IMG/VR virus record: IMGVR_UViG_3300010885_050982
Location: 1 to 64,000 of that record
Reading direction: 5' to 3' (one strand)
DNA from: a virus
Length of the DNA: 64,000 nt
The notes under the pieces are model-generated. The model was given only the letters and a program-made list of their open reading frames with translations. It was not told the origin of the DNA and did not search any database. The stretch's first letter is position 1. Each line of letters starts with the position of its first letter. This document shows, piece after piece, positions 36,125 to 55,862 of this stretch. Position numbers and translations under genes: made by a program.

Positions 36125-36165
36125 ACGATCGCGCAGATGGCAACTTATTTGTGGATCAAGAATCA

Positions 36166-39100
36166 ATGAAAACCATTCAAGAGCGAATCCAAGACTCCAT
36201 CGAACGATATTCGGCTACCGAAGGGCGATGGATAACGATCAACGGCACTCACGTCCAGTTGGACAAGAGCGGGATTGTCGTGTCTGGCCCTGATCGGCTT
36301 CGGGGTCGCATGAAAGCGCCGGAAGCCCCGTCGTGGTTTCGAGGAAAGAGAAAGTCTCCTCCTCAAGACACCCCGGAGATTGAATTCAAATCAGCGGAAA
36401 AACCAAAGCTGAAAGCCAATCTTGGTGCGGACATCTACAAAATGATGCTCGCGCATCAGGCCGCAGAAAAGCAGAAAAAGGACGACGCGGAAGCGAGCAG
36501 GGAATTTGACCGAAAGGACGCCATTGCGCGAAAGTTGCCACCAGCCGCGAAAGACGTGAAACATTCCGGCCTGAATGCGATCAAAAAACAGATCAAGGGA
36601 GGTAAGCGGGCGGATGGTCAGTTCTTCTCACCTGAAGAAATGGACGAACTGTATCGCACCTTCTTGTTCACAATGCGAAAAGCAATGGGCATGACGGAAC
36701 CGACCGCACGAGACCAGCAAGCATTCCGGGACAATCCAGATCACGTCCTAAGCAAGTTTTCAAAGCGATTTACCGAAGCGTATGCAAAGTCGAAAGCCAA
36801 ACTTGCAGCGGGACAGAAAAGCCTGTTTGATGACGACTTCGAGGATTTCCCGGTCCCCGCGATTCCTGTCGCCGAGATTCCGGCCCCAAAAGAAGAGAAA
36901 AAGACGGTCGTGACGGAAAAGTTCGTCGCGAAACCGAAAGTCACCACATTCAAGGAAGCGAGATCCGAGAAGCCATCCAAGCCTGTAGCCAAGCACGGCA
37001 CTCCAAAAGGGAGGCACTGGATTACGCTCCATCACGGCGCTCTTGGCGGCAAAGGGTCGCGGGTGCAGATCGATGACGACGGAACGATCGTTCTGGGTCA
37101 CCCGTCGCTTGTGGGTAAAAATCTCAGCGATATGAAGAAAGTCACAGAATCGGTCAAGCCTGATCAAGAGGAATCGACAGGCGAAGACCGGTCTGCGGAT
37201 CTTCGGTTGGCCGACAAGCTTGCCGACAGGCTTGCGTCGGGAGAGGATCTGTCCGCGAAAGAGTTGTTCGCAATCGCCAATGAAAATCACGGCGGAACAC
37301 GAGCCGAAAACAAATACGGACAGTCCCAAGCGTACGACTCGCTGGAATATGCGATCAACAAAAACCTGGAAGGGGAAACCGATCCACGGGCGAAGCTGTA
37401 TTCAGCGGTCGAGCAGGCTCGTCAAATGGCGAAAACTGTCGATCAGCTGCCCACTCAAACGAACCGAGACGGCAACAAAGTTTTGATGCAGCAGTTTTCG
37501 ACCCCGCCGCACTTCGCCTATGCGGTAAATTGGTTGGCAAACATCGAGCCGGGCGACAAGGTGCTCGAACCATCCGCTGGAACTGGATCTCTCGTCGTTC
37601 ACGCAAAAAATGCGGGCGGGGACGTCTACGCAAATGAACTCGACCCGGATCGCGCTCAGTATCTGGAGGACATGCTCGGAAAAGGGAAAGTCTCCGTTGA
37701 GAATGCGGAGCAGATTGCCGGTATCCTTCCGGGTCGGGGCGTCCCCAAATTTGACACGATCGTCATGAATCCGCCATTCTCGTCCACGGCAGGTCGAACA
37801 GACAGCAAAGACATCCTTACTGGCGCAAAGCACATTGAGGAAGCGGCGATGTTGCTGAAGGATGGGGGGCGGCTTGTCTCCATTGTTGGCGGCGGAATGG
37901 GTCCGGACCGATCGCGGTATCGAGACTTTTTTAAGAAAATGCAAGAAAATGGTTTGATCCTTCGTGCAAACGTTCTCGTTAGCGGGGAAGATATCTACTC
38001 CAAATATGGAACGAAGTTTGATTCGAGAGTTTTGGTCTTCGACAAGACATCAAAAGAAGATCGACTTTCTGAAAAACCGGTTTTCGGCGAAGTTGATGAC
38101 ATTTCAGATTTGATGGAACTTTTAGAAGGGGTCCGAAATGACCGAACTCGAATTGATGAACCATCCAGCGAACAAGCTGGCGACGAAACTGATCAAGCAA
38201 ACGGGGGAAAATCCGAACCCGGAGATTCTGCCGATTCTTCGGCTGGCGCAAGTGTTTCTGGAGACGAAAGTGACGCCATCCCTGGAGATGACGGAACTGG
38301 CGAATTCGGCGTATCAGATGGAGGCACAACCGAAAGAGACAGTGGCGTGCCTGCTGACGTCGGACCCGGAGCAACTGGATCTGGATCGAGCGGAGAATCC
38401 GAAGCTCTCCAGTCAGCTATTAAGCGACGCACTGGACGTTCTCGAAAGGGAAATGCGGGAGGAAAAGGAGCATCCGGGAAGGATACCGGCGGAAAACCTC
38501 CAGAACAGTCTGATGCTGATAAACAGCGGCTTCGACCTCCAGAGCCTGTAGCATTCGAGTCCGATTCGTCTGGTCCCGTCGACAAGACTGGCGAGGGGGA
38601 TGTTGCGACTCAGTCTGATCTCGGCGAGTCGCTGTATGATCTCTATAAACCGCAAGCACTGGTAAAGGGCGCCCACCCGCACGCCACGGCGCTCGTCGAA
38701 TCGGCGGCGATGGCAGCAGTCAAGCCTCCGGTCGCGACGTATCGCCCTGTTTTGTCTCCGGACATCGTCGAAAAAGGAATGCTGTCGGCTGCGGCACTCG
38801 AAACAGTCGTGTATGCGGGGCAATCGCACTCACAGATGCTGGAAGCCGACCCTGGCAAGCCCGAAATGCGTAGGGGGTACTTTATCGGCGATGGCACGGG
38901 TGCCGGGAAGGGAAGGGAGTTGTCCGGGGTCATTACCGACAACTTCAATCAAGGCCGGAAGAAAGCCGTCTGGTTGACGAAATCGCAAGGACTGATCAAC
39001 GATGCTGTCCGGGATTGGGTGGACGTCGGGAATGATAAATCGGACATTTTCCATTTCGACAAGATCCGGAAAGGGAACAACGTACCTGATGACGGGATTG

Positions 39101-42100
39101 CGTTCATTACTTACTCTACATTGCGATCGAAACCGAAGGATGCGAGCAAGAAATCAAACATCGACCAGCTTGTTGACTGGCTTGGGCCTGATTTTGATGG
39201 CGTGATCGCTTTCGATGAAGCCCACCTGATGGCAAACGCCATGAACACTGAGGGTGAGCGGGGAATCAAAAAAGCGAGCCAGCAGGCATTGGCCGGGATT
39301 GAATTGCAGCAGCGACTTCCAAGCGCGAGAGTCGTGTATTCGTCGGCAACCGGAGCAACCGAGCTTGGTAACTTGGCCTATGCCGAACGTCTCGGTATCT
39401 GGGGTCGCGGAACGCCATTCGCGGACAAGAATTCGTTCATCAACGACATGTCCGAGGGCGGGGTCGCTGCGATGGAACAAATCGCTCAGTCACTCAAGGC
39501 AACCGGAAGCTACTGCTCACGCGCAATCGCGATGGATGACGGTACGCCTAACGGCAAGGTGACATACGATCGATTGACGCATCACCTGAGCGACGATCAG
39601 CACGAACAGTACAACGCATTGGCGGATGGCTGGCAGAGTGTTTTGGAAAATATCGACAAAGCATTGGAAATGACGGGCGGCAGCGATAGCCCACAAGCAA
39701 AATCAGCCGCCAGTTCGGCTTTCTGGGGGGCGCAACAGAGATTCTTCAATCAAGTCATGACGTCGATGCAGACACCGGCGGTCATTGAGGCGATGTCGGC
39801 TGACATTAAAGAAGGTCGGTCACCGGTCATCCAACTCGTCAACACGATGGAAGCCTCTACGAAACGAGCGTTGGCCGAACGCGGCGAGGACGACGAAGAT
39901 GCCGATATCGACGTCTCGCCTCGCAAGATCCTTCAGCAGTACCTTGCCACGTGCTTCCCAACGGAGCGGTACGAAAGCTACACCGACGAGGACGGGAACG
40001 AGCGGTCGCGCATGGTCACGCAAGTGAAGCGTGACGAGCACGGAAAGCCCACGACCAATGACAAGGGTGAAGTCTTGATGGAACCGGTCCACGACCCACG
40101 GGCGGTCGCGTTGCGTGACAAAATGCTTCAGGACGTTGCCGCTTACCGAATTCCAGATCCACCAATCGATCAGATCATCAACCATTTCGGTCACGAAAAA
40201 GTTGCTGAAATAACCGGACGGTCGATTCGCAAGATTAAGATGGAGGAAGATGACGAGCCGAAGTTCTATCCGCGAAACTCAGCGGTCGCGAATCAGGCGG
40301 AGTCCAAAGCGTTTCAAGATAACCAGAAAAACATCCTGATTTTTTCGGGGGCTGGGGACACAGGCTTTTCGTACCACGCTGCGCGAAACATCAAAAACCA
40401 AGGTCGTCGTGTCCATTACATGCTTCAGCCAGGCTGGCGTGCGGACGCTGCCGTGCAAGGATTCGGTCGAACGAACCGAACCAACCAATCGTCGGCACCG
40501 CATTATCGGCTTGTTGAAATCGACGAGTTGAAGGGTCAAAAGCGTTTCATCTCGACAATCGCTCGACGACTGGATCAACTGGGCGCGATCACCAAGGGTC
40601 AACGTCAGACCGGCGGTGGCGGACTTTTCGCCGCCAGCGACAACTTGGAAAGCACCGAAGCGAAAGCCGCGCTGGAACAATTCTTCCACAACCTCAAGGC
40701 CGGTGCGATTGAAGGGTTGGATCACACTGACGTCATGCGTCAGTTGGGCCTTGCAAAAAAAGAAGAGTCCAACCGAAAACAGGGCAAGGATACTCCTCCT
40801 CCAGAAATGGGGCAGTTCTTGAATCGCATGCTGTCCATGCGCGTCGGGATGCAGGGGAAAGTGTTCGAAGCGTACGAAAAGCAGCTTCAGCAAGTTGTCG
40901 CCAAGGCAATCGAAGACGGCACGCTCGACTCAGGGGTCGAGAATTACCCAGCAAGCCAGATCAACCGAAAACAAGACTCGGTCGTTTTCAGGGAGCCGAA
41001 GAGCGGCGCGGAAGCTCGGCACATCATCGCGAAGTGCAAAACCAAGTCCGACAAAATGCCGTTCAAGGAAATCGAATCCAAATCAAAACAGCCGGAGAAG
41101 TTTGTCCGAAACAAGCAATCTGGTCACGTCTACGCTGCTTACAAGGGCGTCAACGAAACCGACCCAAAAACCGGCGAAGTCAAAGAGACGTACGTTTTGG
41201 TTGGTGCATCTGGAAATCGTCGATCGGGAGTAGAGAAAGCTGACTTAGAAGGCGATTGGACAGCACGTCGATACAAGGACTGGAAACAGCCGAAGTTCGA
41301 CAAGCTCGACAAAGACGAAGCGGAGCGACTTTGGAAAGATCAGTACGACAAGATTCCAGACTTCAGCGAATCGGATCAGCATTTTCTGACAGGTGCGCTG
41401 CTGCCGATCTGGGACCGAATCCCAGGGAATAAGCCGAAGATCTATCGCATGCGTCTCGAAGACGGTCAAACGATCGTCGGTCGGCACATTCCAGCAAAGC
41501 ACGTCCCAGAAATGCTCCAGCGACTTGGGGCACATGTGGAAGCCGAATCTCACACGGCAGCGGGAACACATTCCGCACTCACTGGAGGCCGACATCGAGC
41601 CGTGCTGGCAAACGGATGGAAACTCAAGCCGGTCATGGTGCAGGGTGAGCGGCGAATTGAGTTGGTTGGACCATCCTCAATGTCCGAGGTGCGCCAGATC
41701 GAAGCAGACGGAGTCAAGAAGGAACTCAAGGGTGGGTACGATCCGCACTATTACGTCCCGGTCGGTGAGGATGGCGTGAAAGTTCTGGAGAGACTGACGA
41801 AATCACGTCCGATTACGGAAGTGGCTGAAATCGAGAAGAGCAAGTATTCGCGACCGGCAACCACAGAAGGACGAATCCAGGCGGCACGGGCAACTGTGAT
41901 GCACGCCGTCGAGTTTGTCGCGATGCCTCGACGAGAGTTTTTCCAACAAGCGGCGGTGCCGAAATCCCGGTTCGAGATGGCGAAAGAGCGTTACGCCCGC
42001 CACAAGCCCGCGTCAGGGCAAATGTCGATGGAAAGCCACTGGATCACTCTCCACGGGGGCAGCGAAGGCGGCGGAACTCACGTTGAGGTCGACGGGAAAG

Positions 42101-44277
42101 GGAATATCACGAAAGGTCCGGCTGGATTGGCAGAGAAGGGGATTAAAAATCTCTCTGATTTCAAAAAAACCGAAGATAAAGAACCTGAATACCCAGCGAG
42201 AGACGATGGCCGACACATTAAAGAAGTGTGGCAAATGACAAAAGCGGAGCACGCCAAGATTTATGGAGGGAAACATGGAAATCATCGACTTGGAAGCGAA
42301 GTGGGCACGCATCTTTCCGGAGACACAACACTGAAGCCGAATCAAGTAGATTTTGATTTTGCTGGGTCTTCACTTGGGATATCTGCATCCGAAGCAAAGC
42401 GGGCATGGAACCAGTTTACTTGGGGCACGGAACTTCCGCCTGTAGACGTCGACAAGCGACACAAGCACCTTGTCGAGCAAGCCGTTCTTGCCGGAAAGAA
42501 TGTTCCGGACCACATCTTGGCTGATTACCCGGATATTGCGAAACTGCGGAATACGAATCGGAAGCCTGTCACCGATGGAGATCTGGATCGCCTAGCCGAC
42601 AACGGGATCGACATCGTCAAACATCCAAAAGGCGGCTGGACCGCCGAGAGGGATAGTCATGACGAAAAGGGACCGTACCGGGAGCACATTGGCCAGTCGT
42701 TCGCGTCTCAGCAGGAAGCTGCGGACGCGGCGTTGAACTGGGCACAGCCGGAGAAAATCAAAGATCCATCACAAACAAAGCCTCACGAACTGTCCATGGG
42801 CGAATCCACAGAGAAAAGCTTGGGTGAGTTGAGAACAGAATTCAAATCGAAAATGGACGAGGTCGACAAGCGACTAGAGGCCACGACTCGACAACTCCAA
42901 GGAGAAAAGTCGCGGGCCGGACGAAACATATCGAAAATCGAAGATATCGAAAATCGATATAAGCGAGCCAAACAGGAAGCAAGCGACGAAAAACAGAAAA
43001 TCGTCAGTCATTATAGTCCGCGAATGATTAACCACCCGGAACACAAAGCCCAGCAGGCAAAAGACGCGGAATCTTGGCGGACAAAGAAAGAGCAAGAAAA
43101 CAAGAAGATTGCCGACAACGACAAGCTCATGAGAAAAGAGCAGTGGGACAAAATACAATCGTCCGGCGGGGTTGATGCCGCCAAGAAAACGGTTCAAGAG
43201 AATCTCAGGCAGTTGCAAATCAAGCACAATCGAACGAAAGAATCAAACCGCTGGAAACTGCCAAAACCAGAACGATTCAATCGCGAATTGGAGTATCTTG
43301 AAGATTTACAGAAAGAGTTTGGTGGCGAAAGCGGGATCGACAGGGCACAGGAGGCAAAGTCGTCACCAGCGGTCAACCGAGAAGAACTCGAAGGGCAAAT
43401 GTTGATGTACAAGGACGCTATCGCAATCAAAAAAGCGAAAGGCGAACCTATTCCGCAAAAGTGGCTGGACGGAATGGCTGATATTTCCGACAAGCGTGGC
43501 GGGCGAACTCCAGAAACAGGTCTGGTCGCATCAAATCATGTTTTCGGTCACCCAGAAACAACGCAAGACCCGAAGTATGCAAACCTGATTCCGATCCGGG
43601 TCGGCGACATTGAAAGCGTGAACCGAAAGACCGAGCAAGCACAGGAAATCTACAATCAGTTGGCGTCGAAGATATCAACTGCACAGTGGCAGGAGAAAAA
43701 CAAGAAGACTAACCCAAAGGCCGCTAAAGCAGCGTCAGCGTATCTTCAGAGTCATGAAGGCCAAAGTGATATCCAGAATCGTGACATGCTTCGCAACGAG
43801 ACGATGCCGGAGCTTCAGCGGTTGCGTCGTGAATTAGCTGGGCAGAAACAATCGCCCCCCGAGCCAATCAATGGCGAGTATCACTCAAAAGACGTAGCCG
43901 ACAAGCCGATCTCAAATGAAGTCTACGCCCAAGAAATGCGGAAGATGATCGAACTGGCAAATCAGCCGAAAGGCACGCTTTCCGGTAGAGCGAAAGAAGA
44001 TTTCGACAGTTACAAGCCGATCATGGAGCGGGACGTAAATAAAGAAGTTACCCCGCGCAAACGGGCGAACGCGGCGATGTACGCGATGCATGACTTACAC
44101 CCAGACGCACAGCAGGCATTGTCAGATCACCTGAAAACGATCGCACCGGAAGCACATCAGCACTTCCATGCGAACAAGCCGATTCATTTTGCGAATGTGA
44201 AAGCAGGAGACGACTCTCCAGAAAAGACGAAATACTCCAGAATCGCCAATGCTCGCATCCGATTTTGCGGTCGATGA
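36166..44277 (+). CDS. Giant polyvalent protein: leader modules, N6-adenine methyltransferase, Strawberry-notch (AAA_34/Helicase_C_4) SF2 helicase and C-terminal modules
   Basis: MTase QQFSTP, LEPSAGTG, MNPPF (37768); helicase GDGTGAGKGR, FDEAH, YSSATGA, EITGR, QGFGRTNRTNQ; WQMT and H...V..A...GK.VP..IL.DYPD motifs. Confidence 0.88.
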   Translation: MKTIQERIQDSIERYSATEGRWITINGTHVQLDKSGIVVSGPDRLRGRMKAPEAPSWFRGKRKSPPQDTPEIEFKSAEKPKLKANLGADIYKMMLAHQAAEKQKKDDAEASREFDRKDAIARKLPPAAKDVKHSGLNAIKKQIKGGKRADGQFFSPEEMDELYRTFLFTMRKAMGMTEPTARDQQAFRDNPDHVLSKFSKRFTEAYAKSKAKLAAGQKSLFDDDFEDFPVPAIPVAEIPAPKEEKKTVVTEKFVAKPKVTTFKEARSEKPSKPVAKHGTPKGRHWITLHHGALGGKGSRVQIDDDGTIVLGHPSLVGKNLSDMKKVTESVKPDQEESTGEDRSADLRLADKLADRLASGEDLSAKELFAIANENHGGTRAENKYGQSQAYDSLEYAINKNLEGETDPRAKLYSAVEQARQMAKTVDQLPTQTNRDGNKVLMQQFSTPPHFAYAVNWLANIEPGDKVLEPSAGTGSLVVHAKNAGGDVYANELDPDRAQYLEDMLGKGKVSVENAEQIAGILPGRGVPKFDTIVMNPPFSSTAGRTDSKDILTGAKHIEEAAMLLKDGGRLVSIVGGGMGPDRSRYRDFFKKMQENGLILRANVLVSGEDIYSKYGTKFDSRVLVFDKTSKEDRLSEKPVFGEVDDISDLMELLEGVRNDRTRIDEPSSEQAGDETDQANGGKSEPGDSADSSAGASVSGDESDAIPGDDGTGEFGVSDGGTTERDSGVPADVGPGATGSGSSGESEALQSAIKRRTGRSRKGNAGGKGASGKDTGGKPPEQSDADKQRLRPPEPVAFESDSSGPVDKTGEGDVATQSDLGESLYDLYKPQALVKGAHPHATALVESAAMAAVKPPVATYRPVLSPDIVEKGMLSAAALETVVYAGQSHSQMLEADPGKPEMRRGYFIGDGTGAGKGRELSGVITDNFNQGRKKAVWLTKSQGLINDAVRDWVDVGNDKSDIFHFDKIRKGNNVPDDGIAFITYSTLRSKPKDASKKSNIDQLVDWLGPDFDGVIAFDEAHLMANAMNTEGERGIKKASQQALAGIELQQRLPSARVVYSSATGATELGNLAYAERLGIWGRGTPFADKNSFINDMSEGGVAAMEQIAQSLKATGSYCSRAIAMDDGTPNGKVTYDRLTHHLSDDQHEQYNALADGWQSVLENIDKALEMTGGSDSPQAKSAASSAFWGAQQRFFNQVMTSMQTPAVIEAMSADIKEGRSPVIQLVNTMEASTKRALAERGEDDEDADIDVSPRKILQQYLATCFPTERYESYTDEDGNERSRMVTQVKRDEHGKPTTNDKGEVLMEPVHDPRAVALRDKMLQDVAAYRIPDPPIDQIINHFGHEKVAEITGRSIRKIKMEEDDEPKFYPRNSAVANQAESKAFQDNQKNILIFSGAGDTGFSYHAARNIKNQGRRVHYMLQPGWRADAAVQGFGRTNRTNQSSAPHYRLVEIDELKGQKRFISTIARRLDQLGAITKGQRQTGGGGLFAASDNLESTEAKAALEQFFHNLKAGAIEGLDHTDVMRQLGLAKKEESNRKQGKDTPPPEMGQFLNRMLSMRVGMQGKVFEAYEKQLQQVVAKAIEDGTLDSGVENYPASQINRKQDSVVFREPKSGAEARHIIAKCKTKSDKMPFKEIESKSKQPEKFVRNKQSGHVYAAYKGVNETDPKTGEVKETYVLVGASGNRRSGVEKADLEGDWTARRYKDWKQPKFDKLDKDEAERLWKDQYDKIPDFSESDQHFLTGALLPIWDRIPGNKPKIYRMRLEDGQTIVGRHIPAKHVPEMLQRLGAHVEAESHTAAGTHSALTGGRHRAVLANGWKLKPVMVQGERRIELVGPSSMSEVRQIEADGVKKELKGGYDPHYYVPVGEDGVKVLERLTKSRPITEVAEIEKSKYSRPATTEGRIQAARATVMHAVEFVAMPRREFFQQAAVPKSRFEMAKERYARHKPASGQMSMESHWITLHGGSEGGGTHVEVDGKGNITKGPAGLAEKGIKNLSDFKKTEDKEPEYPARDDGRHIKEVWQMTKAEHAKIYGGKHGNHRLGSEVGTHLSGDTTLKPNQVDFDFAGSSLGISASEAKRAWNQFTWGTELPPVDVDKRHKHLVEQAVLAGKNVPDHILADYPDIAKLRNTNRKPVTDGDLDRLADNGIDIVKHPKGGWTAERDSHDEKGPYREHIGQSFASQQEAADAALNWAQPEKIKDPSQTKPHELSMGESTEKSLGELRTEFKSKMDEVDKRLEATTRQLQGEKSRAGRNISKIEDIENRYKRAKQEASDEKQKIVSHYSPRMINHPEHKAQQAKDAESWRTKKEQENKKIADNDKLMRKEQWDKIQSSGGVDAAKKTVQENLRQLQIKHNRTKESNRWKLPKPERFNRELEYLEDLQKEFGGESGIDRAQEAKSSPAVNREELEGQMLMYKDAIAIKKAKGEPIPQKWLDGMADISDKRGGRTPETGLVASNHVFGHPETTQDPKYANLIPIRVGDIESVNRKTEQAQEIYNQLASKISTAQWQEKNKKTNPKAAKAASAYLQSHEGQSDIQNRDMLRNETMPELQRLRRELAGQKQSPPEPINGEYHSKDVADKPISNEVYAQEMRKMIELANQPKGTLSGRAKEDFDSYKPIMERDVNKEVTPRKRANAAMYAMHDLHPDAQQALSDHLKTIAPEAHQHFHANKPIHFANVKAGDDSPEKTKYSRIANARIRFCGR
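38138..38551 (+). CDS. Nested out-of-frame gene (137 aa, helical) within the linker of the giant protein
   Basis: GAAGGGG SD 38125-38131; coincides with the low-complexity D/E/G/S linker of the host frame. Confidence 0.55.
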   Translation: MTELELMNHPANKLATKLIKQTGENPNPEILPILRLAQVFLETKVTPSLEMTELANSAYQMEAQPKETVACLLTSDPEQLDLDRAENPKLSSQLLSDALDVLEREMREEKEHPGRIPAENLQNSLMLINSGFDLQSL

Positions 44278-44337
44278 AATTCCCGGAAACAGATAAACTC
44301 TGCCAGCGACAATTTACCCAGAAGGGACACGATAAGC

Positions 44338-47115
44338 ATGACGATCGATACAGAAATCGCAAAACGTATTCAGGCGGCAAGGGTTGCGTACGATCATCAG
44401 CGTGAACTGTATGCGGGTCCGACACGGTGGATTACGGTCGGCGCGGTCGATCATCACGGCGGCACTCACGTCGAGATTGACGGACAAGGCAACATTTCCA
44501 AAGGTCCTTCCGGGATGAAGGGCAGTAATATTGCAAACCTGAAGAAGCCAGCATCAGTGGGGATTCCCGGACATCGACCGCCATCGAATGTGGGGATTCC
44601 TGGACATCGACCGCCATCGAATGTGGGGATTCCCGGACATCGACCGCCATCGAATGTGGGGATTCCTGGACATCGACCGCCATCGAATGTTGGAATGCCT
44701 GGCATGCGACCACCCAACCAAGACGGAATTCCAGGTCATAGGCCACCGTCCGGGCAGTCGATGCCGGGGAATCGAAATGCGGTTCCACCACAGCAGGCGC
44801 AGCCAGCCGGGCAGAATCCGCAAGAGAAGCCAATTCCAGGCGAACCCGCCCCTTTGAAGCAAGCGGTGGAGCAACTTGGAGCGCAGCAGCAACCGACGAC
44901 GCCACCGCCACCGGGACGACTGTATTCGCCGAACCCAGCGTTTGGAGAAGCGGCAAGAGTCGGGGTTCCCGGCAATAAAACTCCTCCATTGCCGCCGCTT
45001 GAATACTTCAGACTGCCAAACCTGAACCCAGAAGAACGTGCAGTCGAAAAGGGTTTTATGGATCAGTACCAGTCCGATCCTGACGGCCAGGCCGATGCGA
45101 TGATCCAAGCGATGGCAAAAGGCATGGGCGACGGTCCAAACATTTTCGCAACCGACGAGGCGAAAGGCTTGGTCAAGGAATGGAAGGGGACAAAAGTCCC
45201 TGAAATGGGGCCGGATGGAAAGCAAGCTGTCGACAAGGATGGGAATCCGAAATGGGATCTCAGTCCTGAAACAAAAGAGTATCGATCAAAGTACAACACG
45301 GCGCTTCACCAGACAGCGAACGCATTGGCGAAGCGAGCGTTCTTGAAATACCTCGATACCGTTGTTGCAAACGGTCCACCGGAAAAGAGAAACATTCTCG
45401 TTACTGCTGGTGGAGTTGCCTGTCACGGTAGAGGCACTCCTGTCGTGATGTTCGACGGAACCCTCAAGAATGTCGAAGATGTCGTTGAGGGCGATAAACT
45501 AATGGGTCCAGATTCAACTGAACGAACTGTAATGCTGACGCATTCAGGTCGCGACATGCTTTACAACGTAACTCCGCATCGTGGCGACTCGTTTACGGCG
45601 AATGGTTCTCACGTTTTGGCGATTCACGCTCAGTTGCGACGAAAAGTGAATGGCGTCGAGATTCCGTATTCTGGCAAGATCACGATTACTGTTGACGACT
45701 ATCTTGCGAAAAGCGGTCGATTCAAGGCGAATTGCTATTTGTATCGAAGAGGGATTGAGTTTGCCGAGTCTCGTGTTCCGCTTGATCCATACTTCTTGGG
45801 ATTGTGGCTTGGGGATGGAACGCATTGCCTGCCAGCGGTCACGTCTGCCGATCCAGAAATCGCGGAGTTCATGCAGCAGTTCACTCGCAAGCAACCACGA
45901 ATGAAGCTGATGGTTCACGCAAAGCCGGACAATGCCGCATCCGTGTATCAAATGTCGTATCTGGATTCGACGCCACAGAAAGGCGATGGATACCGAAAAG
46001 GGTGTCGCCCAAATCCAATCACGGCAAGACTGAAGGAGGCGGGTGTTTTAAGAAACAAACACATTCCTCAACAGTATTTAGCCAACTCCAGCTCCGTGAG
46101 GCTTCAATTGCTTGCTGGGTTGCTAGATTCAGATGGGTCGTACAATGCTGACCGGAAATCGTTTGAGATTACCACCAAAATCGAGCGTATGGCGAAAGAG
46201 ATTCAGTTCCTTGCCAGATCAATTGGATTCCAAGCGTCGATCAATGAGAAGATCGTGAGAAATAATTGGACCGGGAAGTCAGGCGTCTATTTCCGTCTTC
46301 ACATCGGCGGAAACGATCTTGAATTGATTCCGACAAAGATCCTGAGAAAGCAGGCGGAGTCAAGACCAGCAGAGCGAACAGACGGAAGGGTGTCTCGCGA
46401 CGTTCGGCACTCAAGTTTCAGGGTCGATCCAATCGGAGAAGATGAGTTCTTCGGTTTCACGCTGAATAAAGATCATCTGTACTTGCTTGGCGACTTTACG
46501 GTTACCCACAATTCAGGCAAGGGGTTCGCGCTTGAGAATGTTGACCAGACGAAGAGCTTGCAAAAAATGGCTGGTGCTGTGTGGGACACTGCCGGAGAGC
46601 AGAACAGCACCGAACTCGGATGGGTCGCCGAAGAGTGCAAGAAACGTGGACTGAAGATGCACGCCGTATTCGTTCACTCCAAGCCAAGCGAGACATGGGA
46701 AAACCCGGAGCGAGGTGTGATCGAGCGAGCCAATAAAAAGGGCCGCATGGTCGACGCCAGAGCGTTCGCGGACTCTTACACGTATGGCGCGCAGAACTTC
46801 CACAAGTTTTCCCAGAAGTACGCGAACGACCCTAACGTTCACGTTACCGTTCTCGACAACACTCGGCCACCGGTGCCAGATCTGGACGAAAACGGAGTTC
46901 AGAAGATCGACAAAAAGGGAAAGCCAGCCAAAAAGCCGGACGTCGTCGCGATCCCGTCTGTCCCGCAAGAAATGTTGTCGATGGACCCGGATGCATTGTA
47001 CGCTCATTGCATCGAAGCACTGGCAAAATTCCCAGCCTCAGATGCCGTCAAGCAGGGCGGTTCCGCAGGTACAAGAATTTGGCCGGAAACGCTGACGGGC
47101 GGTCGAAAACAGTGA
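44338..47115 (+). CDS. Polyvalent protein: leader, Pro-rich repeats and zeta-toxin-like P-loop kinase, intein-containing
   Basis: Spliced Walker A ILVTAGGVA|SGKG; VWDT, AVFVH..P...ERA...GRMV....F..SY zeta-like motifs. Confidence 0.8.
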   Translation: MTIDTEIAKRIQAARVAYDHQRELYAGPTRWITVGAVDHHGGTHVEIDGQGNISKGPSGMKGSNIANLKKPASVGIPGHRPPSNVGIPGHRPPSNVGIPGHRPPSNVGIPGHRPPSNVGMPGMRPPNQDGIPGHRPPSGQSMPGNRNAVPPQQAQPAGQNPQEKPIPGEPAPLKQAVEQLGAQQQPTTPPPPGRLYSPNPAFGEAARVGVPGNKTPPLPPLEYFRLPNLNPEERAVEKGFMDQYQSDPDGQADAMIQAMAKGMGDGPNIFATDEAKGLVKEWKGTKVPEMGPDGKQAVDKDGNPKWDLSPETKEYRSKYNTALHQTANALAKRAFLKYLDTVVANGPPEKRNILVTAGGVACHGRGTPVVMFDGTLKNVEDVVEGDKLMGPDSTERTVMLTHSGRDMLYNVTPHRGDSFTANGSHVLAIHAQLRRKVNGVEIPYSGKITITVDDYLAKSGRFKANCYLYRRGIEFAESRVPLDPYFLGLWLGDGTHCLPAVTSADPEIAEFMQQFTRKQPRMKLMVHAKPDNAASVYQMSYLDSTPQKGDGYRKGCRPNPITARLKEAGVLRNKHIPQQYLANSSSVRLQLLAGLLDSDGSYNADRKSFEITTKIERMAKEIQFLARSIGFQASINEKIVRNNWTGKSGVYFRLHIGGNDLELIPTKILRKQAESRPAERTDGRVSRDVRHSSFRVDPIGEDEFFGFTLNKDHLYLLGDFTVTHNSGKGFALENVDQTKSLQKMAGAVWDTAGEQNSTELGWVAEECKKRGLKMHAVFVHSKPSETWENPERGVIERANKKGRMVDARAFADSYTYGAQNFHKFSQKYANDPNVHVTVLDNTRPPVPDLDENGVQKIDKKGKPAKKPDVVAIPSVPQEMLSMDPDALYAHCIEALAKFPASDAVKQGGSAGTRIWPETLTGGRKQ
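44557..44754 (+). repeat. 33-bp coding tandem repeat (VGIPGHRPPSN): 4 near-perfect and 2 degenerate units
   Basis: Units at 44557, 44590, 44623, 44656 (Pro codon alternates CCC/CCT), then 44689 and 44722. Confidence 0.9.
45421..46512 (+). mobile_element. Intein (364 aa) with in-frame LAGLIDADG homing endonuclease, inserted in the kinase P-loop
   Basis: CHGRGTPVVMFDG start; LGLWLGDG and LLAGLLDSDG motifs; ends FTVTHN with +1 Ser. Confidence 0.95.
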
Positions 47116-47139
47116 TCCAACCGTTCTTCAGAGACGTTT
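47113..47139 (+). promoter_or_regulatory. TGATCC-N16-CGTTT promoter motif (TGA is the stop of the zeta-like gene)
   Basis: Directly upstream of GAGGA-ATG 47181. Confidence 0.6.
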
Positions 47140-47180
47140 AGTCTTACGTGAGAACGAAACCCATAAGAAAAGAGGAAGTT

Positions 47181-47420
47181 ATGTCAGTTGGAACCATGCA
47201 AGGGCCTCCAGCGTACAAGTTCCCGGAAGCGCAAGCCCAAGCTGAAGCGATTATGTCAAATTTGTCCCAGAGTGACGACGAAATGGATGCCGTTGAAGAG
47301 CGAAAGCACGCTCGGGACGTTGCTCGGGCAGAGGGTGGCGACAGCGGCCCCCAGATTGACCCTGAAAAGTCCAATCGAATCGACAAAGCGAAAACATCGT
47401 TCGACGTACGAGGTTTCTGA
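47181..47420 (+). CDS. Small acidic hypothetical protein
   Basis: GAGGA SD; TGATG coupling to the next gene. Confidence 0.6.
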   Translation: MSVGTMQGPPAYKFPEAQAQAEAIMSNLSQSDDEMDAVEERKHARDVARAEGGDSGPQIDPEKSNRIDKAKTSFDVRGF

Positions 47421-48712
47421 TGCTCAATATTCGCGACAGGATTGCGTCTGCCATCGAGCGATACCAGAAAGAACACTGGATCACGCTTCGGGGGACTCAC
47501 GTACTGATCGACGAAGATGGGGAGATCCTAAAGGGTCCTCCGGCGCTCAAGGGTATTCAACTCGGGAAACCGGTCCCGAAGCGAAAGGCAGACGAATCAG
47601 AAAAGCAGTGGCTGAAACGTATTGCTCCTGATTTGCCAGCCCCAAGGCGACTTCCTGAAAATCATAGCGATTATTTCAACATGGATCGGGCGGACGCGAC
47701 GGTATCGATCGGTCGACTGAAAAGTACGAAGACCGACGCCGAAAACGAAAAAGGCGGCGGGAACGCTCCAAAGTTCATGGATCTGTCGCGACGTGGATTG
47801 ACCGGGAAACGTGATCCGATCACGGTTCGACCGAACGACAGCGGCGGCTATGACGTTGTCGACGGGAATGGAACATTCACTGGTGCGAAACATTACGGTT
47901 GGAAAACACTTCCAGTTCAGATCGAGAAGAAGCTTCCCGAAGAAAATCGGAAGCCATTCTTTACCGATGAGGAAATGAGTTTACCGAAAGAAAGACTTCA
48001 GCCGGTCGCGCAAGATGCTGGTTATGACGTGTTGGCTGCAAAAGCGAAAGTTGCCGATCATCAGTTGCGAACACTATTGGACTTCGGAAAGGGCCTTGGC
48101 GCGCAGCTTGGGTATGAGACCATCCTTCCGGGGGTCATGAAGTTGGATGAAATTGTAGAGCGGTGCAAGAAGCCAGGAGGTATCGTCTGGATTGGCGGCT
48201 TGAAGCCGGAAGCATCAGCGAAACGAAAAGTCCGGGACGATTACAATGGTCACTGGAATCGGCTTTTGGATATTGCGAGGGCAACTGTCGTCGTTGACGC
48301 GATTGACGATGTGCATAAGGTCATCGACAAAGCGAGGGCGATGGGGGCAAAATTGGCTCGTCGGCCAAAAGACCACATAACTAATCCAATACCCGATACG
48401 CATTACCGAGATATCAACATGAATCTGGAGATGCCAAACGGGATGATCGTGGAAATGCAAATCAATCTGAAACCGATGATCATCGCGAAGAAAACTGGGC
48501 ACTTGGACTATGAAATCATTCGGGAAATATCAGGAAAACTTCACGCAGAAGGGGACCGAGAACCGACAGCGAGCGAGAAGTCGCGTCTTCAGCAGGCTCT
48601 CAACGCAAACGTGAAGCTCTACGATGCCGCTTGGGAAAAATGCTTGGGATCGAAAGAGAAATACTCTCGACGTTGCGAACTGGCTGAGTCGAGATTTCGG
48701 AAGATGTTTTGA
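47420..48712 (+). CDS. Polyvalent protein: leader, ParB-like domain and RelA/SpoT-like nucleotidyltransferase
   Basis: DPI.V.....GY.VVDGN (ParB-like); LK...SA.RK, L.DI.R..VV, YRD.N, EMQI, GH..YE..R (RelA/SpoT-like). Confidence 0.8.
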   Translation: MLNIRDRIASAIERYQKEHWITLRGTHVLIDEDGEILKGPPALKGIQLGKPVPKRKADESEKQWLKRIAPDLPAPRRLPENHSDYFNMDRADATVSIGRLKSTKTDAENEKGGGNAPKFMDLSRRGLTGKRDPITVRPNDSGGYDVVDGNGTFTGAKHYGWKTLPVQIEKKLPEENRKPFFTDEEMSLPKERLQPVAQDAGYDVLAAKAKVADHQLRTLLDFGKGLGAQLGYETILPGVMKLDEIVERCKKPGGIVWIGGLKPEASAKRKVRDDYNGHWNRLLDIARATVVVDAIDDVHKVIDKARAMGAKLARRPKDHITNPIPDTHYRDINMNLEMPNGMIVEMQINLKPMIIAKKTGHLDYEIIREISGKLHAEGDREPTASEKSRLQQALNANVKLYDAAWEKCLGSKEKYSRRCELAESRFRKMF

Positions 48713-48720
48713 GGTGGATC

Positions 48721-48936
48721 ATGGACAAAAATGCGCGATACGATTATTACGAATACGGCGATGACCTGCTGGCGAGGAAGATTGCCGGGGCTGGCGAGTT
48801 TTCCCTGTTTGACGTTTGGAAAATCGACCACTGGGAAAAGTCTTCAGACATGGCGAGATTCGTGTCGACCGCCACCAGGATTCGAGACGTGGACGAGTAT
48901 TTGAAAGCGAATCCGCGATTTTTGGCGGCGATTTGA
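48721..48936 (+). CDS. Small hypothetical protein downstream of the RelA/SpoT-like gene
   Basis: GAGGTGG SD then ATG 48721. Confidence 0.55.
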   Translation: MDKNARYDYYEYGDDLLARKIAGAGEFSLFDVWKIDHWEKSSDMARFVSTATRIRDVDEYLKANPRFLAAI

Positions 48937-49153
48937 GAAACGCAAAAGGCAAAACATGAGTGTCTACCTGCCGGGAACCTGCTTCCGTTGTTTGAAGAGG
49001 ATGAAACCGAAGACGGATATGCGTGCCAGAGCCAGTACGGGTTATTTGAGGCATTGATAGAAATGGCCCCTCGTTTGACGGTTCGAATTCCGCTTACCAC
49101 TGCGGACACTCCACTGCTGCCGCGTTGAATCCTGTCGCGGTCCGTTGGTTTTT

Positions 49154-52100
49154 TCATTTGACCTCCTGCAAGCGCTGCAATGCAGCGAGAATTCGCGCGT
49201 TGCGCTCTCGGTGGTCGAATTTCTGTCGATGTTCCAGGTACGACAGAAATCGAGACTCGTGATCGCGAGCGACTATGTCGCGACATTCTTGGGCGATCGG
49301 GGCGAGCACAAGCCCGACAAAACAGCAAGCGAGAACGTAGAGTATTTCTTTCATGATTTCATTCCGTATCTTTTAAGTGTTCCGCATCACAGGCGTCGTC
49401 AATTTCGGCGTGAGTCATGTTCGGGTATCGTGTGTGAGTTGGACATCGGTATCCGAACCCCATTTCATGGGACCACCCTGCTTTGAGTATCTCGCCTTTT
49501 GCGACTCCGTTAAACCAGGCCCGATTGTCGCGGAACTCAGCACAGGCGCAGCATGCAGGTTCATCGCAGGATATTATGGCAACTAAGTCAATTCTGAATC
49601 CCATCTCGGAAGCATCCTTCATTCATTACGTTTGAATTGCCAAATTCCGGGATATTGAGACTCAATATATTCTATTCTGTCAACCACCCAATTGGCTCTA
49701 TCTTCCGACGTGGCCGACAATGCTTGAGGAATATCCTCGGACAACACTACGCGTCCGTCGCGCGTCGTGAATTTAATTGATATGAACTGGTCGCGACTGT
49801 CGCGTCCGATTTGAACAATCCCGCCGCCGTCCATGAAACGCCCCTCTCGTGAGACCATTACTTTCAAACATTGGCAGAGTAAAGATCAGTAACTGACGAC
49901 TCGACCTGCTTGGGCGCGAACCGCGCCAAGAACTCGGCAACGGACCCATAGGGCCGACGTCGATTGATCACGCCATACGCTTTGATCCCGTAAACTCGCC
50001 GGGTTTCCATGTCGACCATGTAGTATCCCGACCCGTTGTAGTCGATATTGACGTATTTCCGGCCTCGCTTCAGGATGACTTTCGTTCCCCAGTGAGCATC
50101 CATTGGGCAGTCGTCGTGTTTTTGTCGTTCGATCGCTCGGGCCAACGCAACCAGTTCCGCGTCGAATTCGTCAGCCGTTGGGGCGACATGCTTCGGGACC
50201 GGGTCGGTTTCCTTGCGAGGAGCCTCGAAGAACTCGTATTCGCTCTCCAAGGGAAAATGGCTGAACTCGTAAGACTTGACGATCCATCCGCTATACCGAT
50301 GGTCGCCAATCCAGTTGCCCTCACCGAACGAGTAGTTGTCCCGGTGCTCGTGATCTTTTCCGTAGTGAGCAGTGGGAGGGAACTTGCTTGCGGCGTCCAA
50401 CATCTGTTTGAACGATTCACGCGAGCCATACCCGAAGCCGATCACGACTTCGCGAACAGTCCTGCCGTATGACAACTGGATGATGTTTGTTGATGCTATT
50501 CATCGATCCGGACCACAAATAAAGATACTTGCGACCGATTTTCGCGACTCTCACTGTTTCGATGATCGGTTCCGGGTTGCTAGACAACTTTCTTGTGCTT
50601 CTGCGATACGATTGATCCACCTCGCGGTACAGCACGTCACCAACCTTGATCGGTGGCAGTTCAAGCGGCGTTTTCGTCATGGCGTTTCCTTAGCAGGGGA
50701 AGTCGTTTTGAAACAATATCAGCAGCAACAATGTTCGCCGGGCAACCAAACAAATCCGCTAACAAGCAAGTGGAAACGAGACCAGCCACCTCGGTACTGT
50801 CAAGGCAATCAGGTTCGTCGTTTAACGCAATCCACTCAACGCCGAACCAATAAGACGGCGTCTTGTACTTTCGCTTTCGGTCGTACACCTTCAAATCGGC
50901 TCCGCTTTTCGACATGCCAGATTTCCTTTAACAGCAGGGGAATTGAGTTGGAATTAAAATTCGGACAAGATCGTTTTCAGGACCAAGTCGAAAAGAGATC
51001 GCATCCAAGCAAGGTCCGTCAGTTGCCAGTGAGATATCCAATGATCGTATCGCAAGATCTCATCATCTTTGGGGACGCGAACTTCAACTCCTTACAATTC
51101 GATCGCATGCCCATGCTTCGCTGCAAGTTCGCGACCCGCATCAGTGAAGTCGACGTACATGTCCTTGGCGCGACCCTTTCCTTCATTGTCGTGGATTACG
51201 ATGAGCCCCTTCTTGACAAGGTCCGACAGGTTTCCACGATGCTCTTTCGTTGGAGCGATGTTCCCGCAGGATACCCAGGGGGTTCCTGACCAATTACCGG
51301 CGTCGGCGGCATACATCAGGAAAGTTGCCAGCGATGCGTCGGTCAATTCGAGTGATTTGTCTGACATTTTTCGTCTCCTCAATTTGCTGCTTTTCTCATC
51401 CCCCACGTTATTGCAAACGCACGTCAGCACGGAAGGATCACGAACAGGGACAAGAATTTTTGAGAATTCATGAAATTGTTTTTTCAATTTTCTTTCCAAT
51501 TTCCGTGATCCTTTCCGGCCTCGGTGCGTTTGCCCTTATGTGGGGACAATAAAAACGAAAACGAGAAGCGGAGAGAATCATGAAACGTAAAGAGATGTCG
51601 CTTCGAGACTATCACAACTCTCTGAAAAACGGAGCGGAGTACTTGTGGGTGTGCGGCATCGGTTATCCAACAGGATGCGATTTCCGTAACAACCTTGAAG
51701 AGTCGGAGTCGATGGAATACTGCGACCTGAACGAGATTATCGATCAGCTTGGGTTGTGGGACCTGAATGGGATTGTTGACCAAAATAACCGCTGGGAGTG
51801 GGACGGGGCCGGAAACCCAGTTGACCATCAAGGAAATTCGATACTCAACATCAAGGCTATGCCTTAGGGAGCGGGATCATGAAGGAACGATGGGAAGTCT
51901 ACGTCAGCGGCGGGAAGCATCAACTTGAAATCGAGTCGGAACGAGACGAGCACTCCGTCCGAATCGAAGCGGCGGGAATGATCGGTGTCGACGTCATGAA
52001 AGTGTCTGTCGCGATGATCGCCTACTGCAATCGCAAGATGGACGGAAAACGGGTCGACGGTGTTGTTGTTCCGCGAAGATACTCCAAGGAATCGCTTGCG

Positions 52101-52388
52101 AACGGGCGAATGTTTCAACTCGGGAACGACTGGGAGGTTATCCCCAGTGGAGACGGCGGCTGGCATGTGGCGAAGACCGTAGAAAAGAAGGGTTACGTCT
52201 ACGAATCGAAAGACAGCGAGAACAACATTACGTCTCGGGTGTACAAGAAAGATAACGGGGCGTATTCAGTTCGCACGATCGACGGCGATTCAGGACAACC
52301 GATCGAAATCCGCAACGGGTATCGATCGGAAGACGACGCCAAGAGACACGCAAACAAAATGACTGGGAAAGGAAGTGAAACCAGATGA
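49154..52388. other. Divergently transcribed accessory block (minus: 49154-49354, 49359-49622, 49619-49867, 49864-50475, 50661-50915, 51092-51367; plus: 51580-51867, 51879-52388)
   Basis: Small coupled ORFs diverging from twin promoters at 51415-51531. Confidence 0.65.
51415..51531. promoter_or_regulatory. Divergent TGATCC-N15-CGTTT promoters (51415-51440 minus; 51506-51531 plus)
   Basis: Both read CGTGATCCTT..GTGCGTTTGC; each is followed by a GGAG SD and ATG. Confidence 0.72.
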
Positions 52389-52598
52389 GCCATTCACCGG
52401 GGCCGTGGAAGATAGGTCAAAAGTTTTCTGGCAATATGGATGAAATCGAACAGCCAGACGGGCGAGCTATTGCTGTTGTATGGACGAGGATACTCGACCT
52501 ACTGTCGCGCTAATTTTTGAGATTCTGGCAAAAAACCTAATTTGATATGCTCGCCGGTCAATACCGAGCGAGCATTTTCATTTTTCGGACGATCAGCC

Positions 52599-54209
52599 AT
52601 GCTTTCCAATGCCGAACGAATCGAACAGGCAAAAGATCGATACAAAAAGCACATTGAAAGCGGTCCAGGACAGAGGGATTTGTTCACGGGCGAGACTCGG
52701 AAGTCGGCGAAAACGCAAGGGAAATTCCACTGGATCACGCTAAAGTCTCACGATGGAGAACCGACAACTCACGTCGAGATCAGCGACGATGGCAAGGTTC
52801 GCAAGGGTCCTGCGGGACTGACCGGGAAATCGCTTTTCGATCACGAATCGAAATCGCCGGATACTGAGAAACCGAAAATCGTCAAAGTTCCTGCTCGGCC
52901 TGCTGTTCATCATGGTACGGCACGACGGGAACCGGCGGCACCGGCGTCTCATTTACGGCATTTGCCAGACGGTCGAGTTGTTGGACCGACCGTTATGTCG
53001 ATCGACGATTTGCACGTCGACCCCGAGCGATTCCAGTACAAGGTCAGTGGGATTAACAAGGAAACCGGGACCAATTCCGAGATTCGCGACAACACGATCT
53101 ACAACCCCGAGTTGGGCGGACAGTTGCTGGTCTGGAAAGATCCTGCTGACGGCAAGACGTACGTCGTCAACGGTCACCACCGCGCAGAGTTGGCGAAAAA
53201 ATCTCCACGGTCGAGCGAAATCGGAGAGTTCAACGGGTCGCATCCCGTCTACTACATCAACGCCAGGGACCACGTGGAGGCCCGCGCGCACGGAGCGTTG
53301 GCCAATATTGCCGAGGGACGCGGGACAGCGACTGACGCGGCGAAATTCATGCGAGACATGGGCGTCGGTCCCGAACATTTCAAAAAGCACGGAATCAGCC
53401 ACAAGGGCGCTCTGGCTGCGGCGGCGATGGAGTTGAAAAAGCTTTCACCGATGATCTTCCAGAAGTTGACGAATGGGATGATTTCGGAAGGCCGGGCGGC
53501 GATGATCGGAAAGCACCTTCCGAACGAAGACGCCCAGGATCAGCTCTACCGATGGATCGAGAAACACGAAAAGCAACCCGGCGACTATTCCGACCGGAAA
53601 GTTGCCGAAATGGCAAAGTCGACGGCGGCAATGAAACCGAAGCAAGCCGGTATGGGTGGCGGACTGCTCGGGGACTGGTTCGATGAGTTTCCGATCGAAC
53701 AAAGAGCCGACATCGCCGACCATGTTGCTCGAACCCTGTCAGGCGAAACGAAATCGCTTCGAGACGCATCGTCAGAACGTCGCAAGGGAGTGATCGAAGC
53801 CGAAGGGGACAATAAGATTGACGCGGTCACCAATCGTGCCAGGGCGATGAAATCGGCGGCGGCACTGGAAGAATTCGATCACCGCGTGAACGCTCAAGGA
53901 CATCCGATCGCACAGCTTTTAGACCAATATGCAGAAAGGCTCGCAAGTGAACCAAAAAAACGAACAGCCATCCTCAAAGAAGCCCTCGCAGAAGTCAGGA
54001 AACTCGCTGAAGCTGGATCGGGAGGGAAAACCGATGACGGAGCAGCAGATCGAACACATGTTCGGCCACTTCAAGGAGATGGTCCGGGACGGCGCGATTC
54101 AGAACAGCCAGCTTCAAATGGAGTGAGTCGGTTTTCCAGGCTGGAGGCGGCAGAGGCTAATTATCGGTATTATTGCGAGAGAGTCGCCGGTAAGAATTCT
54201 CAGTCTTAG
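52599..54209 (+). CDS. Polyvalent protein: leader and ParB-like domain
   Basis: ERIEQAKDRYK, GQRDLF, HWITL..THVEI.DDG.V.KGPAGL; DP.RFQYK, LLVW.D..DGK.YVVNGHHR. Confidence 0.78.
   Translation: MLSNAERIEQAKDRYKKHIESGPGQRDLFTGETRKSAKTQGKFHWITLKSHDGEPTTHVEISDDGKVRKGPAGLTGKSLFDHESKSPDTEKPKIVKVPARPAVHHGTARREPAAPASHLRHLPDGRVVGPTVMSIDDLHVDPERFQYKVSGINKETGTNSEIRDNTIYNPELGGQLLVWKDPADGKTYVVNGHHRAELAKKSPRSSEIGEFNGSHPVYYINARDHVEARAHGALANIAEGRGTATDAAKFMRDMGVGPEHFKKHGISHKGALAAAAMELKKLSPMIFQKLTNGMISEGRAAMIGKHLPNEDAQDQLYRWIEKHEKQPGDYSDRKVAEMAKSTAAMKPKQAGMGGGLLGDWFDEFPIEQRADIADHVARTLSGETKSLRDASSERRKGVIEAEGDNKIDAVTNRARAMKSAAALEEFDHRVNAQGHPIAQLLDQYAERLASEPKKRTAILKEALAEVRKLAEAGSGGKTDDGAADRTHVRPLQGDGPGRRDSEQPASNGVSRFSRLEAAEANYRYYCERVAGKNSQS
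54034..54126 (+). CDS. Nested out-of-frame 30-aa ORF within the C-terminal linker
   Basis: GGAGG SD at 54021-54025; MTEQQIEHMFGHFKEMVRDG looks amphipathic-helical; the host frame here is a G/D/R linker. Confidence 0.4.
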   Translation: MTEQQIEHMFGHFKEMVRDGAIQNSQLQME

Positions 54210-54420: not shown

Positions 54421-54732
54421 ATGCGATTGAGCGAGTTGGAGCCAAGGTGGATTCACCCCAGCATGTTCGTTTTCAAGTGTCCCTGTTGCCGTAATGTCTG
54501 GTTGACATGCAAGAGCAGTCCGATGACCCGGCAGGAAACATGGAATATCTTGAGAAGTGGACTCGGCGAGGACTGGAATCAAATTGTCGTTCCCCCGAGC
54601 CCGGAAACGCAATGGTCAATTTCCAATAACGTCCCAAGAGGATTCGCGGATAACATTTCGGTTACGCCCTCGATCGACGCCAGCGCATCCGGTCATTGGC
54701 ATGGGTTCATCACCAATGGGGAAATCAAGTGA
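54421..54732 (+). CDS. DUF6527-like protein
   Basis: F.CPCC ... SVTPSI ... HWHGFITNG motif. Confidence 0.6.
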   Translation: MRLSELEPRWIHPSMFVFKCPCCRNVWLTCKSSPMTRQETWNILRSGLGEDWNQIVVPPSPETQWSISNNVPRGFADNISVTPSIDASASGHWHGFITNGEIK

Positions 54733-55847: not shown

Positions 55848-55862
55848 TCGAGGACGCCTTGC

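Follow-up and report, generated by a model that had tools for sequence, protein, structure and literature searches.

Box A, a conserved leader of effector modules in portal-linked phage proteins and a probable mark of head-carried cargo

The Box A family

What is the role of a short protein motif that recurs six times across four genes, all of them downstream of the gene for a Mu-type portal? The question is raised by a 64,000-nucleotide stretch of viral DNA, positions 1 to 64,000 of the IMG/VR record IMGVR_UViG_3300010885_050982 (hereafter the window), which belongs to a 103,387-bp virus record with a CheckV completeness of 82%. A first-pass annotation of this DNA had noticed the motif, W-I-T…G-T-H-V-x-I-D-x-x-G-x-I-x-K-G-P, here called Box A, and had read it as a docking tag that would become N-terminal after cleavage, perhaps binding the capsid interior, the portal or DNA. 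Judging from sequence comparisons, Box A is a real, widespread and seemingly undescribed protein family, and it probably marks proteins that travel in the virus head and are passed on to the host.

The six copies were recovered by a six-frame regular-expression search, with their W codons at exactly 36229, 37018, 42040, 44428, 47477 and 52731 as first annotated, and the same search found no further Box A in the window. A profile built from these copies scored them at 43–77 bits, values that are high by construction as the profile derives from the same sequences, and it detected no other Box A in the 103,387-bp genome, the next-best match reaching 5 bits. Three copies lie in open reading frame (ORF) 36151-44277 (protein P0001) and one each in ORFs 44338-47115, 47420-48712 (P0003) and 52542-54209 (P0004, taken from its ATG as ORF 52599-54209). 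Codon identity between copies at the conserved residues is only ~50%, indicating that they are old and have been kept by selection on the protein. Too little DNA identity is shared for the copies in the window to be recombination sites. Their positions are as follows.

36223..36321, + strand: Box A copy 1 (GRWITINGTHVQLDKSGIVVSGP...), 43 bits, near the N-terminus of a 2708-amino-acid protein
37012..37140, + strand: Box A copy 2 (RHWITLHHGALGGKGSRVQIDDDGTIVLGHP...), 69 bits, heading a methylase/Sbno-helicase module
42034..42168, + strand: Box A copy 3 (SHWITLHGGSEGGGTHVEVDGKGNITKGP...NLSDFKK), 68 bits, heading the C-terminal third of the 2708-amino-acid protein
44422..44547, + strand: Box A copy 4, 75 bits, leading an intein-bearing zeta-kinase-like protein
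47471..47575, + strand: Box A copy 5, 54 bits, leading a ParB-like / RelA-SpoT-like protein
52725..52850, + strand: Box A copy 6, 77 bits, leading a DdrB-type ParB-like protein

Searching 1.84 billion cluster representatives with a 42-position profile retrieved 477 protein clusters at E ≤ 1e-3, of which 55 passed E ≤ 1e-10; the best foreign match (E 8e-36) was a protein of 2505 amino acids with six boxes. Only the best 150 of the 477 matches were examined; local re-scoring yielded 253 boxes in 152 retrieved proteins, with up to six per protein. In IMG/VR, three degenerate DNA patterns picked out 27 stretches, and all 27 encode true boxes. The ten clusters that we looked up were exclusively metagenomic and either 'hypothetical' or nameless. 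When prokaryotes were scanned (one genome per species), the first pattern gave four chance matches and the second gave three true boxes, all three in bins of metagenome-assembled genomes assigned to Schlesneria and Tepidisphaerales (Planctomycetota) and to Cellulosilyticum. No box matched Pfam even at E ≤ 10, including the deposited LPD models and MuF / SPP1 gp7 (PF04233), and NCBIfam at E ≤ 1 held nothing for Box A. Matches to PHROGs were confined to the cargo domains, with none on the box, a sequence profile search of the PDB returned chance-level matches (E about 1) and the ESM Atlas gave no usable match.

Across the 246 foreign boxes, the consensus starts as [E/G]-[R/H/K]-W(100%)-[I/V]-T(99%)-[I/L]-loop-G(93%)-T-[H 60% / P 24% / R 9%]-V(87%)-x-[I/V/L]-D(64%), with a Gly-rich loop of 1–14 residues, and continues as x-x-G(100%)-x-I(88%)-x-[K/A]-G(100%)-P(90%)-x-x-L-x-G-K-x-[I/V/L]-x-x-L. 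The conserved unit was initially taken to be ~30 residues long; it covers instead ~42–50, running on as L-x-G-K-x-I-x-x-L. Its core is about neutral (net charge ~-0.02 per residue), which disfavours DNA, one of the binding partners first proposed, and the 40 residues after the core are mildly basic, poor in hydrophobic residues and linker-like. AlphaFold2 (AF2), run with a 30-row alignment on copies 3 and 5, predicts three antiparallel strands in copy 3 (HWITL, GTHVEV and NITK; pLDDT 81–89) and the same three strands in copy 5 (pLDDT about 87). The suggestion of a beta-hairpin is therefore borne out as far as beta structure goes, the predicted form being a three-stranded meander and not a simple hairpin, and Box A is probably a self-folding beta domain of ~45 residues. 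A dsRBD-like alpha-beta3-alpha topology, read from the first model, was dropped because it depends on low-confidence helices. Structural comparison with the PDB by Foldseek (best E 2.1) and with VIA-align in its wide mode (best Z 3.5), with dsRBD-like, AP2/integrase-N-like and SH3-like small beta folds in view, gave nothing significant. In a fold search of BFVD, the top matches (E 0.025–0.13, probability 0.92–0.98) were uncharacterised virome proteins, the best of them (E 0.025) a DUF5710 phage protein; these proteins may be members of the Box A family.

Two candidate activities were rejected from the box sequences. The His is replaced by Pro or Arg in about a third of the copies and the Asp is variable, so that there is no catalytic triad and a catalytic or self-cleaving domain is excluded. 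Metal binding through the His/Gly loop is excluded as an obligatory property by the 56 of 209 boxes that have no His, and there is no conserved Cys.

A degenerate variant of the box, G-W-Q-[RK]-V-G-G-A-x-V-F-V-x-x-x-G-K-I-x-x-G-C-P-G-L, is found in L002, P0025, P0026, P0027 and P0039. It heads a conserved module (…TGLTAG…YxDxS…DTPAxVWExIREGK) that in P0007 and L010 follows canonical boxes.

Leader position and genomic link to portals

Among the 253 boxes, 95 begin inside the first 100 residues of their protein, and in 95% of the N-terminal boxes at least 14 residues precede the W. Gaps between boxes have a median length of 416 residues (5th percentile, 125), and a median of 294 residues follows the last box. 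That Box A takes the N-terminal, leading place in each module, as initially supposed, is shown by the way in which modules have been shuffled between proteins. P0021, encoded by a 104-kb contig, consists of a P0003-like module (47% identity over the full length) joined to a P0004-like module (53%), and the joint falls exactly at the helix plus box of the latter. In P0017, a portal 45% identical to that of the present phage is followed at once by the box and a P0004-like module. Two stand-alone genes, P0044 and P0047, correspond to P0001 at the start of its third module, and the helix plus box comes first in both. Finally, P0125 has, in this order, Box A, a P0004-like module, the second type of tag described below (Box B) and a zeta module devoid of intein. 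As these rearrangements indicate, the swapped unit is [short Tyr-containing helix]-[Box A]-[flexible Lys-rich linker]-[effector domain]. It can stand alone as a gene, lie within a polyprotein or be fused behind a portal.

The connection of the box with head genes, also anticipated by the first-pass annotation, was confirmed by the domains that accompany it. In a Pfam tally of 139 foreign box proteins, 23 had a portal domain N-terminal to the boxes (Portal_Mu in 15, Phage_portal in 5 and Phage_portal_3 in 3). Other partners were InPase (10), 2H (8), LPD1 (8), ART-PolyVal (7) and ADPrib_exo_Tox (4), with Topoisom_I, zeta and NUDIX rarer (3 each); further ones were SNF2/Sbno helicases, PBECR3, DRAT, Acb1 and DarA_C, and LPD1/3/5 appeared elsewhere in box proteins. 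The tally contained no relaxase, ArdC or other conjugation-type domain. Box A was not seen to occur broadly in non-phage proteins, and its partners are those of the effector set of phage-type polyvalent proteins. We mapped 17 portal fusions, and in every one the portal takes the N-terminal side, with the boxes behind it, some of them 17–40 residues past the portal domain. Likewise, of the 27 viral contigs at least 14 have a portal either fused to the box protein or encoded no more than ~5 kb from it, despite the little flanking DNA available, and in a 146-kb phage the box gene sits among 'head morphogenesis' genes and the large terminase.

The co-occurrence first expected with both portals and MuF held for portals, whereas MuF is hardly ever found in the same protein (Phage_Mu_F in 2 of 139). 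MuF is a separate gene in four of five other genomes with boxes; it is missing from G004 and from the present genome, where MuF (PF04233) had no match anywhere in the 103-kb record. The box is not a degenerate relative or a replacement of MuF, as it has no match to the MuF profile and MuF exists as a separate gene in other box genomes. In the present genome, the slot after the portal, occupied by MuF in Mu-like phages, is filled by a box-led polyvalent gene.

A two-part junction and the possible function of the box

Every cargo gene of this phage opens with an R-I-x-x-A-x-E-R-Y-[S/A/Q]-K-type helix, after which comes Box A or Box B, and this pair is repeated at most internal junctions. The box had been described as usually sitting just after an 'ERY' junction. 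An R/A-Y motif of this kind does lie 6–31 residues before five of the six Box A copies, copy 2 having no Tyr motif nearby. The corresponding segments in the window are as follows.

47420..47473, + strand: N-terminal Tyr helix (MLNIRDRIASAIERYQKE) before the box, a low-confidence helix prediction
36166-36213, 41965-42003, 44353-44415 and 52599-52652, + strand: equivalent Tyr helices before other Box A copies

Box B is a motif of ~14 residues, [W/F]-D-E-x-x-H-P-R-D-x-x-G-x-F, with six copies at 54837-59790 of the window, each after a Tyr helix of the ERYSK type. Both boxes come after a lineage-specific site and head cargo modules, but Box B is linear and Box A is a 45-residue beta domain; homology between the two was rejected (hhalign probability 0.4%). 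They nevertheless occupy equivalent places: after homologous ART modules ending in GTFDPxDNRM[A/D]Y, P0012 has Box A and the present phage Box B, and at least 15 foreign proteins have Box A at some junctions and Box B at others.

The segment that precedes the box varies between lineages and is repeated within a protein, for example KFARRF..EKYA in P0009, NLS in P0040 and KDEK in P0043; identity between upstream segments is 16.5% within proteins vs 8.1% between them. Of the foreign boxes, 21% have the motif Y[AS][KR] in the 40 residues before them (background, 3%), and 77% have a basic residue before the W. In the present genome, Y[AS][KR] reaches 2.3 occurrences per 1000 amino acids in the cargo and 6.35 in the protease-scaffold protein, vs 0.54 elsewhere. 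The ORF for the latter (genome positions 71998-73905, outside the window) has four Y[AS][KR], three of them in its last 170 residues, and its C-terminus (...PERYSRGG...DIDRYRRE) resembles the junction motif of the cargo. The gene for the major capsid protein is at genome positions 74452-75570. As the box is constant across three portal families and the upstream motif is lineage-specific, the upstream part is the better candidate for contacts with the capsid or the protease.

Box A is thus most likely the conserved half of a two-part junction, in which a probable cut or targeting site is followed by a generic handle. The head machinery of the phage would recognise the lineage-specific Tyr helix, which would serve as a cut site for the prohead protease, as a scaffold-like signal for targeting to the capsid or as both; each module would be cut free within the head, and Box A would remain at the new N-terminus as a cargo-independent handle. 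A generic handle on mature N-termini is suggested by the constancy of the box, which changes neither with the cargo nor across three portal families and persists in portal fusions. Whether this handle acts in the loading or delivery of head-carried cargo seems to us evenly balanced. Its more specific roles are tentative: it might hold the cargo in the portal-proximal interior of the head for loading or, just as tentatively, lead the chain out during ejection and refold first. The constancy of the box next to a lineage-specific upstream part would also be compatible with a later action, during exit or in the host.

Several observations weigh against this two-part junction with a handle. A protein fused to a portal should have no need of a loading signal, yet such fusions retain the box, and its likeness across three portal families would not obviously be expected of a specific portal contact. 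Y[AS][KR] is near only 21% of the foreign boxes, so that the two-part structure relies on motifs that differ between lineages. The helices flanking the predicted sheet have low AF2 confidence. By tblastn with two variants, Box A is absent (no matches or chance ones) from 50,697 cultured phages and 72,556 plasmids. Moreover, packaging, cleavage and ejection of the cargo are inferred from the gene context together with published work on polyvalent proteins (Iyer, Burroughs, Anand, de Souza, Aravind 2017, PMC5512222) and on the P1 Dar system (PMC12810830).

Three other explanations deserve consideration, each of which we regard as unlikely. The box might be an exosite by which the prohead protease docks at each junction, with a role in processing only and none after the cut. 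It is always found at module boundaries, beside a motif especially frequent in the protease-scaffold protein, and it is kept in portal fusions, where release would require cleavage; the proteins of the window, in addition, have no zincin HExxH peptidase of their own. However, a protease-specific element should co-vary with the protease, whereas the box is nearly constant over three portal families, whose proteases probably differ, and it is the upstream motif that varies. At the same junction, moreover, the box can be substituted by a non-homologous short tag.

It is similarly improbable that Box A only keeps neighbouring modules apart, as a passive spacer or folding insulator without a specific binding partner. 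The missing enzymatic and metal-binding signatures noted above would agree with such a role, as would the Gly-rich loops and flexible linkers that surround the box and the lack of any fold or family match pointing to a function. A spacer would not, however, be expected to keep both faces of its predicted strands nearly invariant over 246 copies with unrelated cargo, nor to stand at the very start of single-module proteins, where there is nothing to insulate; and the box is confined to portal-linked proteins, which a general linker would not be.

We also find it doubtful that the box acts exclusively after delivery, binding a universal component of the host or setting the fate of the effector through its N-terminus; an aromatic N-terminus might, for example, shorten the life of toxic effectors by the N-end-rule pathway. 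A universal partner would fit a sequence that is independent of phage lineage, portal type and cargo. Box A and Box B both start with an aromatic residue, the W being commonly preceded by a basic one, and the cargo includes toxin-like enzymes (zeta, ART, RelA/SpoT-like). There is, however, no evidence for a cut directly before the W and no host partner is indicated, the neutral charge speaks against binding to DNA, and the tight genomic link with portals would be left unexplained. Lastly, chance resemblance or recent within-genome duplication without function, which the shortness of the motif and the origin of the first profile in the six copies themselves could have favoured, is practically untenable, being already refuted by the 477 foreign clusters, the uniformly true DNA-pattern matches and the diverged codons.

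Returning to the two-part junction, a broader and still tentative possibility is that tailed phages use a general code for loading and delivery, in which Box A and the HPRD..G.F tag serve as interchangeable 'address labels' independent of the cargo. Proteins bearing a lineage-specific cut or targeting site plus a label would be taken up into the head beside the portal, be cut free and reach the host before or with the DNA. If this were true, elements of 15–45 residues would be sufficient and portable signals for packaging foreign proteins into phage heads, and a leader sufficient for loading would allow chosen proteins to be put into phage capsids. Only in a few model phages (T4, P1 and N4) is it understood how large packaged effectors are chosen, separated and passed through the tail, and a cargo-independent leader would provide a concrete sequence handle on how head-packaged effectors are selected. 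It would also provide a rule for annotation, the box with its upstream site marking a module boundary and a probable virion-delivered effector, which would draw attention to many anti-defence and host-takeover proteins listed as 'hypothetical' in viromes.

Known systems and the genes of the window

Leaders of comparable position are known from other systems. In phage T4, a short N-terminal capsid-targeting sequence leads internal proteins such as IPIII and Alt and is removed by the prohead protease gp21; it has ~10–20 residues, is cut off and is lineage-specific. The resemblance lies in a short N-terminal leader on unrelated proteins, which in T4 are packaged in the head, cut by the prohead protease and injected into the host, and which here would share this course. 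Unlike the T4 signal, Box A is a predicted folded domain of 45 residues that crosses lineages, is repeated in polyproteins and is more likely to stay in place; it is the upstream Tyr helix that would correspond to the T4 signal. Polymorphic toxins have pre-toxin boundary motifs, VENN in CdiA and DPxGL in Rhs, that belong to the secretion machinery. As with these motifs, a conserved element marks the boundary before swappable effector domains, but Box A is tied to phage heads and has no sequence relation to them.

The cargo genes and their neighbour in the window are the following.

34357..36099, + strand: Mu-type portal gene (Pfam Portal_Mu, E 1.3e-29), directly upstream of the first box gene
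36151..44277, + strand: polyvalent protein P0001, 2708 amino acids, three boxes; likely true start at ATG 36166
44338..47115, + strand: box-led P-loop (zeta-like kinase) protein, 925 amino acids, split by a Hint/LAGLIDADG intein
47420..48712, + strand: box-led ParB_N + RelA_SpoT-like protein P0003, 430 amino acids; both Pfam matches weak, below cut-offs
52599..54209, + strand: box-led DdrB-ParB-like protein P0004, from its ATG start; the ORF is open from TTG 52542
54696..60326, + strand: two further cargo genes (ORFs 54696-55847 and 55863-60326), led by Box B and not by Box A

The portal had no match in the cultured phages searched. In P0001, a methylase region (Pfam MTS) is followed by a Strawberry-notch-type helicase (AAA_34, 9e-105; Helicase_C_4, 5e-82) and by an unassigned C-terminal third. 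The intein of the zeta-like protein (Hint + LAGLIDADG, C...HN|S) spans ~45421-46521, inside the Walker A motif (GGVA-[intein]-SGKGF). Both extein halves are contiguous in the relative P0125, which therefore represents an intein-free allele. ORF 52542-54209 matched PHROG 21, 'portal protein', at 1e-64 through the C-terminal, non-portal part of that family, and the ParB-like phrog_1033 weakly (E 9e-4); our interpretation is a DdrB-type ParB-like module, one that other phages have fused to their portals. ORF 55863-60326 carries ART-PolyVal and 2H domains.

These genes have the domain set of the phage-type polyvalent proteins, multi-effector proteins encoded beside head genes for which effector-portal fusions have been described in the main text of PMC5512222. 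Two or more unrelated effector domains share a polypeptide in P0001, in P0003 (with domains below the cut-offs) and in ORF 55863-60326, and the linkage with head genes is seen here in the Portal_Mu gene directly upstream and, among the relatives, in the 23 of 139 proteins with a portal domain and the two with MuF. The domains shared with the set presented in that text are ART-PolyVal, 2H, InPase, DdrB-ParB, RelA/SpoT, zeta, the methyltransferase with SNF2/Sbno helicase, LPD1/3/5 and PBECR3. No mention of Box A was found in the main text of PMC5512222, whose supplement might contain an unnamed LPD equivalent of it. The paper proposes a zincin peptidase domain for processing, which the proteins of the window lack.

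A second parallel is offered by the Dar system of phage P1, in which DarA and Hdf lie on the inner capsid surface and DarB and DdrB are the cargo; the prohead protease cleaves the DarA N-terminus, and the proteins exit with the DNA (PMC12810830, PMC9024508). The DarB-like methylase-helicase and the DdrB-type ParB of the window resemble this cargo, and a box protein of L002 contains DarA_C. P1, however, loads its cargo by means of a DarA-Hdf lattice, and Box A was not found in the cultured-phage collection. Neither DarA nor Hdf was recognised among the scanned ORFs of the window, although no dedicated search for them was made.

Three other regions of the window merit mention. Between the genes for P0003 and P0004, ~3.8 kb (48713-52541) hold small ORFs, several on the minus strand, with no Pfam or PHROG match. 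This segment parts two cargo genes that are fused as one polyprotein in P0021, and it resembles an insertion placed exactly at a module junction. At 18576-21074, an ORF of 832 amino acids has a Hint_2 match below the Pfam cut-off (E 5e-6). On the minus strand, at 63162-63953, an ORF of 263 amino acids matches the PP2C_2 phosphatase domain (E 1.3e-6).

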